Assembly: GCA_947589695.1 (NCBI GenBank)
Contig: CANQBY010000001.1
Coordinates: 1 to 28,771 of the forward strand
From: an uncultured Bacilli bacterium
Lineage (GTDB): Bacteria > Bacillota_I > Bacilli_A > RF39 > UBA660
Direction of reading: 5' to 3'
DNA: 28,771 bases
Below are positions 4,371 to 25,329 of the stretch, one piece after another. The number at the start of each line of letters is the position of its first letter. The stretch's first letter is position 1. The notes under the pieces were generated by a model. It had not been told where the DNA came from. It saw only the letters and a list, made by a program, of their open reading frames with translations, and did no database searches. The position numbers and the translations under genes were made by a program.

Positions 4371-5453
4371 ATGAAAACAAAATGGATGAATTATATATTA
4401 TTTTTAGGGCCAATAAGTATTTTAATTATTATTTCTTTACTTAATATGAAAATAGTAGGAATAAATAATGCGATGTATAAAAGTTATTTTATGAAACAAA
4501 GTTTATGGTTTATACTAGGTTTTATAGTAATGTTTATCATAATTAAATTAAAGCCCAAATTACTGTTTAAATATAGTAAATATCTATATTATTTTAATGT
4601 GTTTTTGTTAATATTAGTTTTATTAGTGGGAAAAACAATAAATGGTTCAAAAGCCTGGTTTGATTTTTATTTCTTTTCTTTTCAACCAAGTGAATTAATG
4701 AAATTTTCCCTTACTTTATATTTAAGTCAAATATTAGCCAATTATAAAAAACATGATTTTAAAAGTGAACTTAAATTTATTTTAAAAGCCATATTTTTAA
4801 TGCTTATTCCCTCTTTATTTGTCTTTTTAGAACCAGATACCGGGGCTATTATAATATATTTCTTAATAACTTTAGGGATTATTATGATATATAAAATAAA
4901 TATTAAATGGTATATATTTTTAGCTATGATTCTCATATTATTAGGGGGTGGGTTCTTATATCTTTATTATTTTAATAAAGATTTGTTAATAAAGTTAATT
5001 GGAACTACTTTCTTTTACCGGATGGATAGAATATTTACCTTTGTTAATAAAGATTCATTTCAATTAGATAGAGCTTTAATTGCGATAGGAACAGCAGGAC
5101 TCATTAGTACTAAGCATTTTATTTATATACCAGAAGCGCCAACTGATTTTATAATTGCCCTTTCAATTAGTAATTTAGGAATTATTAGCTTAATAATAAT
5201 CTTAGGAGCATTCTTAAGTTTAGATGTTTACTTTTTATATAAATTATTTACAAATAAAAATATGAAATATAAAATGTTTATGGCTGGATTCTTAATGATG
5301 TTTATATTTGCCCAAATTCAAAATATTGGTATGAATATAGGACTGTTTCCCATTATTGGACTTCCCCTACCATTTGTTAGTTATGGAGGGACAAATATCT
5401 TAGTTTATTTTATGTTTTTGGGAATAATTGGCAGTAAAAAAGAATTTTTTTAA
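4371..5453 (+). CDS. FtsW/RodA/SpoVE (SEDS) peptidoglycan glycosyltransferase
   Basis: Multi-TM protein with NGSKAW, FQPSELMK, LEPDTG, EAPTDFI, GLFPIIGLPLPFVSYGGT motifs; paralogue identity not resolvable. Confidence 0.92.
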   Translation: MKTKWMNYILFLGPISILIIISLLNMKIVGINNAMYKSYFMKQSLWFILGFIVMFIIIKLKPKLLFKYSKYLYYFNVFLLILVLLVGKTINGSKAWFDFYFFSFQPSELMKFSLTLYLSQILANYKKHDFKSELKFILKAIFLMLIPSLFVFLEPDTGAIIIYFLITLGIIMIYKINIKWYIFLAMILILLGGGFLYLYYFNKDLLIKLIGTTFFYRMDRIFTFVNKDSFQLDRALIAIGTAGLISTKHFIYIPEAPTDFIIALSISNLGIISLIIILGAFLSLDVYFLYKLFTNKNMKYKMFMAGFLMMFIFAQIQNIGMNIGLFPIIGLPLPFVSYGGTNILVYFMFLGIIGSKKEFF

Positions 5454-5461
5454 ATTTCTAC

Positions 5462-5490
5462 TTGACAAAAATTGGCTTTTGTAGTAGTAT
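5462..5490 (+). promoter_or_regulatory. sigma-A promoter with no downstream protein gene
   Basis: TTGACA (5462-5467), 17 nt, TAGTAT (5485-5490). Confidence 0.65.
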
Positions 5491-5495
5491 ACATC

Positions 5496-5644
5496 CTCGA
5501 ACATTTAATTTGTTTGAATAAATTCTTTTCCATTCTTTGATATACTTCCTTTACTTAACTAATATCAAATTCTACTAATTCAGGCATTATTAAATGTTTA
5601 TTCATTTGTTTAGAACAAGCAACTTCGGTTGCTTGCTTTTTTTT
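5496..5644 (+). ncRNA. Candidate ~145-nt small RNA (long hairpin plus intrinsic terminator)
   Basis: AACATTTAAT 5500-5509 pairs with ATTAAATGTT 5589-5598; TGTTTGAAT pairs with ATTCAGGCA (two G-U); TTTGATAT/ATATCAAA closes a C/U-rich loop; promoter upstream and UUCG terminator downstream. Confidence 0.5.
5616..5644 (+). terminator. Intrinsic terminator
   Basis: CAAGCAAC-TTCG-GTTGCTTG (8 bp stem, C-UUCG-G loop) followed by C and a T run. Confidence 0.8.
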
Positions 5645-5697
5645 GTTTAAAAAAGATAGGTTTTAAAACCTATCAATATAAAGTAATAAAAATATAA

Positions 5698-5735
5698 CTT
5701 GCCCTTAGATAAAAAGGTTTAGCACTAAAGGCAAG
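5698..5735 (-). terminator. Probable terminator of the 474-aa gene
   Basis: CTTGCCCTTAG 5698-5708 / CTAAAGGCAAG 5725-5735 inverted repeat, a G-U pair on the minus strand. Confidence 0.45.
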
Positions 5736-5787
5736 AGAAATATTAAATTACACTACACTCCATCTAAAGTGCTCTACCATACTTCGT

Positions 5788-7212
5788 CTATGAGACTTCG
5801 TATGGATTTGTCATATTTCCTGGACCTGCAGTATCAGGACTTTTTGTTTTGAACTTTGTACCAGCTTTGAGATTTATTACTGGGCGCACACCACGAGTGT
5901 CGCTCACGTCGCTGCGGCCGAGGGAGCCATCACTATACACACCGAACACGTAAGCATAACCGTCATCAAAGCCACGCGGAGACATTGTCCAATAATTTCG
6001 GCCTGTATATAAGTAATAACTATCATTAGGTTGTCCAGCTAATCCTCCGGCAAAAACTACTTCATCTGCTGTGATTAAGCCTACTGGTACCGGTAATTTG
6101 CCATTGCCTTGTCCAGCACTATCACTTGTAGTATATAAATCTCTTTTCTTATTTTTGCATGTAAATGTTGGTTCTTGAGTAGTGTCCCAATCTGTGCTAC
6201 TAGGATTTAAAAATCTATCATATGCTCCATATATTGTTGGGAAAGTACCATACCCTTGGTTTGTATAAATAATATTTCCATGATTTGAAGAAGCTTTCGA
6301 TCTATCTCCACAAAAACCTGTTGCTCCATCTATTTTATTTTTATACTCTTCATTTTTACCTATTTTATTATCATACCATTCTTTTATTGTATCTAATATA
6401 GTACTATTTGTCACACTATCTGACATCTCATTGTTATATGTAGTTGATGGAGATTTTTTTTCACCATCATACATATAGCCTACATACTTATTATCGTTAA
6501 AAGTATCATTAAATTGTACATTAGCGTCATCATTAATAGATGTACCTTTACCAGTTTTTTGAGCAGTATCACCAGAATAAATAAGTCTTATAGTACCATC
6601 ACCATTAATTCGAATAATTCGCCAATACATATCAGCAAACTTGACCCAGTTATTATCCACTGTGCCTCGATAATAATATGTTATTCCGTAATCGTCTGTT
6701 CCTTTAAATAATCCGCTATTACTATCAGCACAACTTCCACATGCTGTACTTGAAAAACTTTCTTTGCCTTCTCGAGCTTCCTCTGTACTCAATCCTAATG
6801 CTGCCAAAGTTTTTAATGTAGCATTGGTAAAATAAACATAACATTTTGTTCCTTTTTTAGTTATATCAATTCTTACCTTATCTCCTGTATATTCCATATT
6901 ATTTGTTATTCTTTCTTCTGTACTTCCAACTATACAATAACTCTTTTCATTATCTATTTCATAATTACCTTTGGGTATTTCTTCTATTAATACATCATTT
7001 TTACCTGTACTTTTATACATAGCAATAACATTTAAATCAGCACTTGTATAATTTATTGTTCCTTCGGCTAACTTTACACTATCAACTGTTTTATATTTAG
7101 CTTTTGCAAATAATAAATTACTTACTGCAAGAAGTGCTACTCCCATTGCTAAGCCATATAAAAACCATTTTCCTTTTTTACTATTACTAATATCTAGTTT
7201 TTCGAATTTCAT
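5788..7212 (-). CDS. Membrane-anchored surface protein with C-terminal CLec-like domain, putative DGR target, 474 aa
   Basis: N-terminal hydrophobic anchor; YYYRGTVDNNWVKF...WRIIRINGDG, GLITADEV and C-terminal YWTMSP...AYVFGV..DG....V..TRGVRPVINL, the pattern of DGR-target C-type-lectin-fold domains. Confidence 0.8.
   Translation of the reverse strand: MKFEKLDISNSKKGKWFLYGLAMGVALLAVSNLLFAKAKYKTVDSVKLAEGTINYTSADLNVIAMYKSTGKNDVLIEEIPKGNYEIDNEKSYCIVGSTEERITNNMEYTGDKVRIDITKKGTKCYVYFTNATLKTLAALGLSTEEAREGKESFSSTACGSCADSNSGLFKGTDDYGITYYYRGTVDNNWVKFADMYWRIIRINGDGTIRLIYSGDTAQKTGKGTSINDDANVQFNDTFNDNKYVGYMYDGEKKSPSTTYNNEMSDSVTNSTILDTIKEWYDNKIGKNEEYKNKIDGATGFCGDRSKASSNHGNIIYTNQGYGTFPTIYGAYDRFLNPSSTDWDTTQEPTFTCKNKKRDLYTTSDSAGQGNGKLPVPVGLITADEVVFAGGLAGQPNDSYYLYTGRNYWTMSPRGFDDGYAYVFGVYSDGSLGRSDVSDTRGVRPVINLKAGTKFKTKSPDTAGPGNMTNPYEVS
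5881..6003 (-). other. Putative DGR variable repeat (VR)
   Basis: 60 G/C in 100 nt at 5881-5980 (hand count) in an AT-rich gene; 31 consecutive codons are 27 NNY plus 4 GTG, none ending in A. Confidence 0.75.
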
Positions 7213-7282
7213 TCCTTACCCTACTTCCTTTCTTAAGTTATACTTCATTTACTTATTGATTAATAATATGTAATATATTTAT

Positions 7283-16823: not shown

Positions 16824-16898
16824 GCAGGTATAGTACAGTGGTTAGTATGCGACCTTGCCAAGGTTGAGACGGCAGTTCGAATCTGCTTACTTGCTCCA
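16824..16898 (+). tRNA. tRNA-Gly (GCC)
   Basis: GCAGGTA/TACTTGC acceptor stem, CGACC-TTGCCAA-GGTTG anticodon arm, GGCAG-TTCGAAT-CTGCT T arm, encoded CCA. Confidence 0.95.
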
Positions 16899-16910
16899 AA
16901 TTGATTTATC

Positions 16911-16931
16911 TCCCGTTTTTCGGGGTTTTTT
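16911..16931 (+). terminator. Terminator after tRNA-Gly
   Basis: TCCCG-TTTTT-CGGGG followed by a T run. Confidence 0.65.
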
Positions 16932-17039
16932 ATTTATATTTTTGTTTTACGTAGCAATTACGTAGCATTTAGGAATACGTCATACAAAGCCAAAGACATA
17001 AATGATAATATACACAGAATTGATAAGTTTTTATTAGTA
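16916..17039 (+). repeat. Left copy of the ~115-125 bp direct repeat bounding the island
   Basis: Shares TTTATTTATATTTTTGTTTT...TAGCATTTAGGAA..CGTCATACAAAGCCAAAGACATAAA.GATAATATACACAGAATTGAT.AGTTTTTATTA with 25106-25218; contains TACGTAGCA twice at an 11-bp period. Confidence 0.9.
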
Positions 17040-17097
17040 TTTTTCTTATAAAATAAAGATTAAGCCTTATAAAATCTTCAAATGATGAATTCTAATA

Positions 17098-24944: not shown

Positions 24945-25105
24945 ACTTTTTACCTCCTTAAAAATTTATTAATAATTACAATATTAGTATAATATAAATT
25001 TTTAAAAAACTCTAGACAATTATTGAAAAATTTAATAAAAATGAAAGAGAAGTTCGTAAGTTGTAGCTTTATCGCTCAATTTATTTTGGTTTTTTCCCCC
25101 CTCTT

Positions 25106-25218
25106 TTTTTCGGGTTTTTTATTTATATTTTTGTTTTTACATAGCATTTAGGAAGGCGTCATACAAAGCCAAAGACATAAACGATAATATACACAGAATT
25201 GATTAGTTTTTATTAATA
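25106..25218 (+). repeat. Right copy of the direct repeat bounding the island
   Basis: Aligns to 16916-17039 with a few substitutions and one fewer 11-bp TACGTAGCAAT unit. Confidence 0.9.
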
Positions 25219-25329
25219 CTTTTAAAACAAAAACTATTAAGATTATTTTATAATTGTCTAAATAAAAGATTATCAATTTCATGTGATAATCTTACTTATA
25301 TTAATTGTAATTTGGATAATTAATCATCT

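Follow-up and report, generated by a model that had tools for sequence, protein, structure and literature searches.

A highly conserved candidate small RNA gene with anti-start-region loops, usually found downstream of rodA in one genus of small-genome gut Bacilli

The window analyzed here is a 28,771-nucleotide stretch of contig CANQBY010000001.1 (contig C1 below) from an uncultured Bacilli bacterium, and it belongs to a 1.13-Mb metagenome-assembled genome that is 71% complete and has a G+C content of 27.6% (genome G000). Two convergent genes in the window leave a gap of 334 bp between them: a rodA/ftsW-family gene on the + strand (4371..5453; Pfam PF01098, E = 4.8e-56), hereafter rodA, and on the - strand a gene for a 474-amino-acid (aa) membrane-anchored protein without a Pfam match (5788..7212), which is a member of a very large paralogue family, the targets of a diversity-generating retroelement (DGR). 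Within this gap, at 5462-5644, lies the subject of this report, a candidate gene for a small RNA (sRNA). The same element is present in records named as uncultured Bacilli, “Mycoplasma sp. CAG:776,” and Candidatus Caccenecus avistercoris. We compared it across a genus set of 41 genomes and an order set of 86 genera (this genus and 85 others), while whole-genome comparisons of potential targets cover two genomes, that of the window and a second one of 1.15 Mb (G004); the closest relative is designated G018.

A preliminary description of the window had recognized here a promoter, a hairpin, and a terminator without an open reading frame (ORF) on the + strand, and all of these features were found where it had placed them. 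The sigma-A-type promoter (5462..5490, + strand; score 10/12) consists of a -35 hexamer TTGACA (5462-5467), a 17-nt spacer, and a -10 hexamer TAGTAT (5485-5490). A transcript of about 145 to 148 nt is predicted from it (5497..5644, + strand), with a putative start about 7 nt past the -10 hexamer and a 3' end in the T-run of an intrinsic terminator (5616..5644, + strand), which comprises an 8-bp stem with a UUCG loop (5616-5635) followed by the T-run to 5644. Folded at full length with its terminator, the predicted transcript reaches -28.7 kcal/mol (z = -5.65). No + strand ORF lies in 5462-5644, and no conserved ORF was found on either strand among the species compared; the only candidate ORFs, including one on the + strand that begins with TTG, are hit by frame-shifting indels of 1 to 2 nt.

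Comparison between species suggests that this promoter is used. The TTGACA core is kept in all 37 sequences that span the position, the -10 hexamer retains the form TAnnAT, and the 17-nt spacing is fixed, whereas the bases of the spacer, the 6 to 7 nt past the -10 hexamer, and all of the flanks vary. Because the hexamers are kept at a fixed spacing while the bases between them vary, we judge the promoter to be in use. A motif TTTTGT(T/A)G directly upstream of the -10 hexamer (within 5470-5484) is retained in most species amid the otherwise variable spacer, and it could be a -16-region element or a binding site for a regulator. The sequence of the terminator is specific to each species, but a GC-rich stem and a T-run are always present on the + strand, after a variable spacer of about 12 nt.

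The RNA between promoter and terminator is predicted to form one long hairpin (5499-5599, + strand), the elements of which agree in the minimum free energy (MFE) and consensus folds. The lower part consists of two stems, P1a (5499-5509 with 5589-5599) and P1b (5511-5519 with 5578-5586). Above them, a CU-rich 5' internal loop (5520-5535), unpaired in both folds, holds an anti-start-codon CAU at 5531-5533 and faces a 3' internal loop (5570-5577). A further stem, P2 (5536-5543 with 5562-5569), carries an 18-nt apical loop (5544-5561) in which an anti-Shine-Dalgarno (anti-SD) sequence, CUUCCUUU, occupies 5545-5552. The 3' strands of P1b and P1a (5578-5599) include a linker that varies from 0 to 5 nt. 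The hairpin of the preliminary description is borne out by its thermodynamics: the + strand of 5497-5606 has an MFE of -17.5 kcal/mol (z = -4.8), which none of 200 shuffles matched. The signal is strand specific, the - strand of the same segment having z = -1.2, and in a distant species the corresponding values are -5.9 (+) and -2.4 (-). The consensus structure has 27 pairs, and at one of them 20 sequences differ from 16 by a one-sided change between U-G and U-A. Such changes fit RNA pairing on the + strand, since on the - strand their equivalents would be C-A mismatches.

The core of the element is conserved to an unusual degree. A DNA search of relatives recovered 5454-5602 at 83 to 96% identity in 23 of 24 same-genus genomes, the 22-nt complement of the apical loop is present in a single copy in 39 of the 41 genus genomes, and a 34-nt stretch (5536-5569) is identical in 37 named genome records. 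An alignment of 36 species has, from CGAACA onward, 85 invariant and 10 near-invariant columns, and in it the 5' internal loop is invariant from 5525 onward. In the alignments, tolerated changes are confined to five places: an A/G bulge at 5509; indels of 1 to 2 nt where the 5' internal loop begins, at which the window carries a private AA insertion; the 3' portion of the apical loop; the 0- to 5-nt linker in the 3' arm; and U-A to U-G changes in the stem. Pairwise identity of the core is 95.7% (minimum, 89%), compared to 79.5% for 6S RNA, 82% for the RNA of the signal recognition particle (SRP), 71% for the last 300 nt of rodA, and 69% for the RodA C terminus in the same genus; orthologous proteins of two members of the genus have a median identity of 68%. 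Metagenomes contributed 23 pattern matches, of which 8 were real and 15 were due to chance, and the 8 contigs concerned contribute only two variants of the loop.

The distribution of the element is as narrow as its sequence is constant. A covariance model built from the alignment scored 104 to 122 bits in all sampled genomes of the genus, and in 145 genomes of the 85 other genera of the order it found nothing save one match of 26.6 bits in another genus (G135), which we dismissed, as it lies inside an operon gene for a 182-aa protein. No match was found on the viral contigs, phages, or plasmids searched, and the secondary BLAST matches to 5500-5547 in the window's own and related genomes are unrelated AT-rich coding sequence. 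The gene is chromosomal and single copy and usually directly follows rodA. Judged from these sequence comparisons, it occurs in a single genus of gut Bacilli with small genomes (the “Mycoplasma sp. CAG:776”/Ca. Caccenecus group), where purifying selection on it is extreme. We consider it very probable that 5462-5644 holds a real + strand sRNA gene maintained by very strong selection.

What such an RNA might do is suggested by the sequences that its loops expose. The one 16S rRNA assembled in the genus (in genome G041, which we used as the 16S 3' end was not found in G000 or G004) ends in CACCUCCUUU. At 5543-5552 the sRNA reads ACUUCCUUU, compared to ACCUCCUUU in this 16S rRNA, so that 9 of 10 positions agree and the tenth is a change from C to U. 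With this change, CUUCCUUU can pair with GGAGG through a wobble and with GGAAG perfectly. Complementarity between the sRNA and the 16S rRNA itself was no better than that of shuffles (the best helix scored 23, whereas shuffles averaged 24.5), and the 23S rRNA was covered over only about its first kilobase. The covering of a Shine-Dalgarno (SD) sequence and an AUG would be the most economical reading of exposed loops that are poor in G and rich in C and U. On balance, we lean toward a stand-alone, genus-specific noncoding RNA gene whose product would act in trans, independently of Hfq, by base pairing with translation start regions. The CUUCCUUU of the apical loop, a near-copy of the 16S anti-SD tail, would pair with SD sequences of the GGAGG and GGAAG types, and the CAU of the 5' internal loop, 11 nt upstream of the anti-SD, would pair with the AUG; an mRNA covered at both sites together would be kept off the 30S subunit. 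Neither Hfq nor CsrA (PF02599) was found in five genomes of the genus that are 93 to 99% complete.

Potential targets of such pairing were sought by scoring duplex energies on start regions (1,119 in G000 and 1,196 in G004) and by scanning both whole genomes for contiguous helices; a whole-genome sliding duplex scan was abandoned because it returned unrealistic duplexes with long loops. In the contiguous-helix scan, the best partners of the apical loop lie at -22 to -5 of start codons, for example, in G000 AGUUAAGUGAAGGAAG upstream of a 638-aa member of the paralogue family and in G004 GUUAAGUAAAGGAAG upstream of a gene of 980 aa; the genes that pair best are not the same in the two genomes. 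The energies of 641 reciprocal-best orthologue pairs are correlated (rho = 0.35), which conservation of SD strength would lead one to expect. Six orthologue pairs have a loop helix score of at least 22 in both genomes, where 0.7 would be expected, a weak excess in that orthologous start regions are not independent. From their N termini or Pfam matches these six look like a ParB-like protein, agrB (PF04647), a PD-(D/E)XK-like protein, a CpaF-like ATPase, a 186-aa protein, and a lipoprotein. Four genes of G000 are weak candidates, to be taken as leads rather than findings: agrB (C16:9504-10106, - strand; PF04647, E = 8e-32), which is present in 38 of the 41 genus genomes; a phosphorelay gene with Hpt and receiver domains (C24:10652-11407; PF00072 and PF01627), which has the best start region in G000 at -28.1 (local) and -37.9 (long-window) kcal/mol; a 363-aa gene whose N terminus led us to guess a CpaF-like ATPase (C25:2326-3414); and the lipoprotein gene (C43:3816-5009). 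The agrB homologue also suggests agr-type peptide quorum sensing in these small genomes. A 29-bp helix containing G-U pairs, between the 5' arm of the sRNA and a G004 gene, was judged a chance match, as it lies inside the coiled-coil coding sequence of a large serine recombinase; homologues of this recombinase in G000 are on C13 and C14, and no such helix is among the top matches listed there.

Several observations weigh against the view that the sRNA pairs with start regions, and we gather them here. Different start regions top the rankings of G000 and of G004, and in the joint list rpsL and further genes with strong SD sequences come first. Beyond the sRNA's own gene, only 4 scattered sites in the 41 genomes match at least 19 of the 22 nt of the loop complement. 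Across 30 species, and with pairing in two different registers, the start region of agrB averages -17.2 kcal/mol against a background of -12.4 (standard deviation [sd], 3.05), about 1.6 sd better. The pairing of the phosphorelay gene's start region is conserved only in part, with long-window energies of -15 to -33 kcal/mol in 30 orthologues and rank 225 in G004, and this start region too is only about 1.6 sd better than background. CU-rich RNA of any kind will score well against purine-rich start regions. The joint invariance of stems and loops exceeds the constraint usual for an RNA with multiple targets and fits an RNA bound by a protein or a molecular machine at least as well. As to the fold itself, covariation, which the preliminary description had put forward together with folding, is lacking: compensatory double changes were seen at none of the 27 pairs because almost nothing varies, so that the fold rests on thermodynamics and the one-sided changes.

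The narrower proposal of the preliminary description, that the sRNA serves as an antisense RNA dedicated to silencing the DGR target next to it or the paralogue family of that gene, covering SD and AUG and so controlling which variable surface proteins are made, has evident attractions in this genome. The 5' untranslated region (UTR) and start region of the 474-aa gene (7210..7255, - strand) contain two stretches complementary to the sRNA. The match of 5541-5557 to 7239-7255 in 16 of 17 positions is exactly as described, and the second alignment, to the SD and AUG at 7210-7236, can be read from the sequence. At no more than 2 mismatches this 17-mer, a segment picked post hoc, was seen once besides itself in the window, for which shuffles give an expectation of 0.04; genome-wide, the match has a BLAST E value of 1.3. 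With the start region of the 474-aa gene, the sRNA has a local duplex energy of -23.6 kcal/mol, which ranks 4 of 1,119 in G000. Of 150 dinucleotide shuffles of the sRNA, 1 attained this energy, and of 150 shuffles of the target, none did, so that here the complementarity did surpass shuffled controls. Paralogues of G000 that share its leader class rank 12, 53, and 93, two longer members of the family rank 3 and 7, and the family as a whole beats other genes with p = 0.008, a value that overstates the case as the paralogues are interrelated. Cassettes with paralogues also adjoin the sRNA in about 13 of 38 species. Across species, however, this pairing is not retained, although the sRNA itself is invariant. 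The start regions of eight further paralogues adjacent to the sRNA, in seven species, score from -10.5 to -22.3 kcal/mol, which is unremarkable next to the genome mean of -16.5 (sd, 5). The closest relative has an unchanged sRNA and 89% identity in the intergenic DNA, yet its orthologous leader scores -17.3 and no longer contains the 5' half of the 17-mer. The 18 paralogues of G004 are not enriched for pairing (mean -12.33 against -12.49; p = 0.45), and the three with intact N termini rank 578, 1157, and 1159 of 1,196. Most paralogues of G000 itself carry a different leader that pairs poorly, and the family occurs in 31 of the 86 genera of the order and the sRNA in 1, which leaves 30 genera with the family and without the RNA. 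Since the pairing is not kept across species, it cannot explain an RNA that is frozen genus-wide, and the conserved function lies elsewhere. What stands of the proposal is a + strand sRNA gene with anti-SD and anti-AUG loops, supported by conservation in about 40 species; the silencing of the neighbour or its paralogues is not supported. A dedicated silencer seems to us improbable, and from these sequences the pairing is at best a lineage-specific addition, by which the 474-aa gene may be a lineage-specific target in this genome.

Other accounts of the conservation do not call for pairing with mRNA, or do not call for an RNA gene at all. The hairpin may be a structural RNA recognized as a whole by a protein or machine, such as the 30S subunit, an initiation factor, an RNase, or a factor that binds the 16S 3' tail, and may serve as a decoy or scaffold. 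The invariance of stems, apical loop, and internal loops alike, above that of 6S and SRP RNA, speaks for this account, as do the failure to find a conserved mRNA target and the copying of the 16S anti-SD at 9 of 10 positions. It is set back by the 38 loci, at which no protein gene other than rodA is consistently adjacent, by the failure to find Hfq and CsrA in the five genomes searched and the lack of GGA motifs on the + strand, and by the restriction of the RNA to one genus, which makes it an unlikely partner for universal machinery; we rate it as unlikely, though still to be taken seriously. A more speculative reading, which we advance with little confidence, is that the RNA is a free-standing mimic of the two elements by which the ribosome reads mRNA: a rigid hairpin would present the anti-SD tail of 16S rRNA and the CAU of the initiator anticodon, spaced as at a start site. 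It would govern translation initiation globally in these reduced genomes, or be a decoy for a factor recognizing the 16S 3' end. Mimicry of the ribosome would account for the freezing of every nucleotide, a constraint stricter than that on 6S or SRP RNA. In such a scheme, a preference for SD sequences of the GGAAG type would set the expression of subsets of hypervariable surface proteins in some lineages.

We think it very unlikely that the unit is not a separate gene and is instead the 3' UTR and terminator of rodA with a chance promoter, or a DNA element such as a hot spot for recombination or insertion of paralogue cassettes. There is no terminator between the rodA stop codon and the sRNA promoter, and the terminator at 5616-5644 is the first one downstream of rodA, so that transcripts of rodA probably read through the sRNA to the same terminator. 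Cassettes of a paralogue and an XRE gene lie on one side of the unit or the other in different species, and the 17-mer pair (5541-5557 and 7239-7255) constitutes a direct repeat flanking the 474-aa gene. The fixed spacing of the promoter hexamers in all species amid varying bases argues the other way, as does the retention of promoter and terminator at loci where the upstream gene is not rodA. The folding signal is strand asymmetric, an invariant DNA site of 100 bp has no known counterpart here, and the motif of the flanking repeat belongs to one leader class and is present at paralogues elsewhere in the genome. A product of the - strand, either a small protein or the decayed 5' end of a paralogue, which the preliminary description had kept as its alternative, is hardly credible. 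A - strand ORF of 27 aa does exist in the window (5533-5450), a strong SD, AAAGGAAG, stands 9 nt before its ATG, and A/G at 5509, the most frequent substitution in the core, is a synonymous change (AAT/AAC) in the 8-codon ORF (MEKNIQTN; 5533-5507) that most species have instead. The 27-codon form arises here only through the 2-nt insertion, however, and the ORF is frame-shifted in 4 of 38 species; as indels break the frame in these species, the synonymy may be a coincidence. No - strand promoter is conserved, the T-runs of the terminators are on the + strand, and an invariant core is the opposite of decay.

Among known systems, the csRNAs of Streptococcus, which depend on CiaR, provide the closest comparison that we considered in detail. 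They are 51 to 202 nt long, arise from an intergenic promoter followed by an intrinsic terminator, and hold anti-SD and anti-AUG (CAU) sequences in unpaired sequence, by which a block of translation initiation was proposed and partly shown; a CiaR box, NTTAAG-N5-TTTAAG, lies 10 nt upstream of their -10 hexamer (Marx et al. 2010, PMC3091779). The present sRNA resembles them as a short promoter-terminator unit of a low-GC Gram-positive organism with CAU (5531-5533) and CUUCCUUU (5545-5552) in predicted loops. Its promoter, in contrast, has TTGACA and no TTTAAG repeat, and thus no CiaR box; its elements lie in the loops of one long hairpin, whereas those of csRNAs lie in a linker between two stem-loops; it is single copy, whereas csRNAs form several paralogues per genome; and its conservation far exceeds that of csRNAs, which come in 40 types within a single genus. 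Nor is there any similarity to csRNAs by sequence or in Rfam. At threshold, Rfam has no family in the window save for a tRNA elsewhere in it, and a permissive scan of 5300-5900 gave nine sub-threshold matches (E = 0.28 to 9), none of them to a csRNA.

RsaE/RoxS, LhrC, and other sRNAs of Bacillota with C/U-rich loops act in trans, independently of Hfq, through pyrimidine motifs in loops that pair with the SD regions of several mRNAs, and like the present unit they have intrinsic terminators. Their motifs are CCC or UCCC, and they are spread across families or orders, whereas the present sRNA uses CUUCCUUU and CAU, is confined to one genus, and has no Rfam match. Its loop has the polarity and the SD partners of the 16S anti-SD tail; unlike that tail, it belongs to a separate molecule, in which the one change from C to U widens pairing to SD sequences of the GGAAG type, and it may compete with the ribosome. 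DapZ and MicL are examples of 3'-UTR-type sRNAs that have their own promoter and share the terminator of the upstream mRNA. Here too the unit has a promoter of its own and directly follows a coding gene, rodA, from which no terminator separates it, but the promoter lies past the stop codon rather than inside the coding sequence, and the unit is intact where rodA is not upstream.

Membership in several other RNA classes was examined and rejected. 6S RNA (RF00013) was matched at other loci in four of five genus genomes (48 to 51 bits) and the small bacterial type of SRP RNA (RF00169) at other loci in all five (55 to 65 bits), and the sRNA unit has no 6S match. An antisense RNA of a type I toxin-antitoxin system is not indicated, as the - strand ORF of 8 codons encodes a hydrophilic peptide and is frame-shifted as stated above. 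An RNA that sequesters CsrA/RsmA was dismissed because the + strand core lacks GGA and PF02599 has no match in the five genomes. Nor does the unit appear to be an accessory or template RNA of the DGR: its core has no other copy in the genome and no similarity to the paralogues, the reverse transcriptase (RT) is on another contig, and the sRNA was not found in the 30 other genera that have the paralogue family.

The genes around the sRNA vary more than the sRNA does. The usual upstream neighbour is rodA, which immediately precedes it in 24 of 38 loci; where it does not, the promoter and terminator of the sRNA are intact. The downstream neighbours, always convergent, are cdaR-cdaA at 9 of the 38 loci, an operon encoding 245-aa, 331-aa, and pilin-like proteins at 15, and a member of the 474-aa family at 8. 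In 5 loci the family member is upstream of the sRNA instead, which brings its adjacency on either side to about 13 of 38. This pattern implies that the sRNA is older than the cassettes beside it; the gene is a long-standing resident of the interval between rodA and cdaR, and cassettes of paralogues (with XRE genes) have been inserted on either side of it.

The paralogue family to which the 474-aa gene belongs gave 46 tblastn rows in the 1.13-Mb genome. Its 5' leaders form classes. Most have their own TTGACA...TATAAT promoter and a shared leader, and in a minority with a different leader, which includes the 474-aa gene, an upstream AUG opens a 10-codon upstream ORF that ends 3 nt before the main start. 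The only RT match (PF00078) in G000 is at C43:5553-6278 (- strand), and about 2 kb from it a fragment at C43:8480-8803 matches paralogue residues 373 to 473; this fragment could be a template repeat or a truncated target. Adjoining the 3' end of the sRNA, and not part of it, a dispersed repeat (5637..5700, - strand) contains a palindrome, GATAGGTTTTAAAACCTATC, followed by a T-run, with a terminator-like stem at 5655-5674. The repeat, of about 55 to 65 bp, has 21 other matches in G000 (on contigs C137, C104, C43, C108, C135, C9, C20, and others) and about 20 in G018, whereas the remaining genomes of the genus have few such matches or none. On C43 it lies directly downstream of a C-terminal paralogue fragment, and it looks like a shared 3' flank and terminator of the DGR-target paralogues. 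Elsewhere in the window, a tRNA (16824-16895) precedes a segment of some 130 bp (within 16824-17053) that recurs 8.2 kb downstream at 25105-25232 with 89 to 94% identity. Among the genes bracketed by the two copies are those for a nuclease of the GmrSD family, a zinc-ribbon protein (DUF4379), and a PD-(D/E)XK protein, and the bracketed region looks like an integrated island.

The regulatory RNAs of these uncultured, small-genome Bacilli, which inhabit the guts of humans, mice, rabbits, and chickens, are essentially unknown, and the element described here adds a candidate sRNA family that has a clear gene structure and lies outside Rfam. The picture of a dedicated antisense RNA that serves an adjacent DGR target cassette is attractive but unsupported. 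This RNA varies less than 6S and SRP RNA do in the same genomes, which suggests that what it does is important and highly constrained; if its mimicry of the anti-SD is functional, nature would here offer a compact case of an RNA that blocks translation start sites in general.

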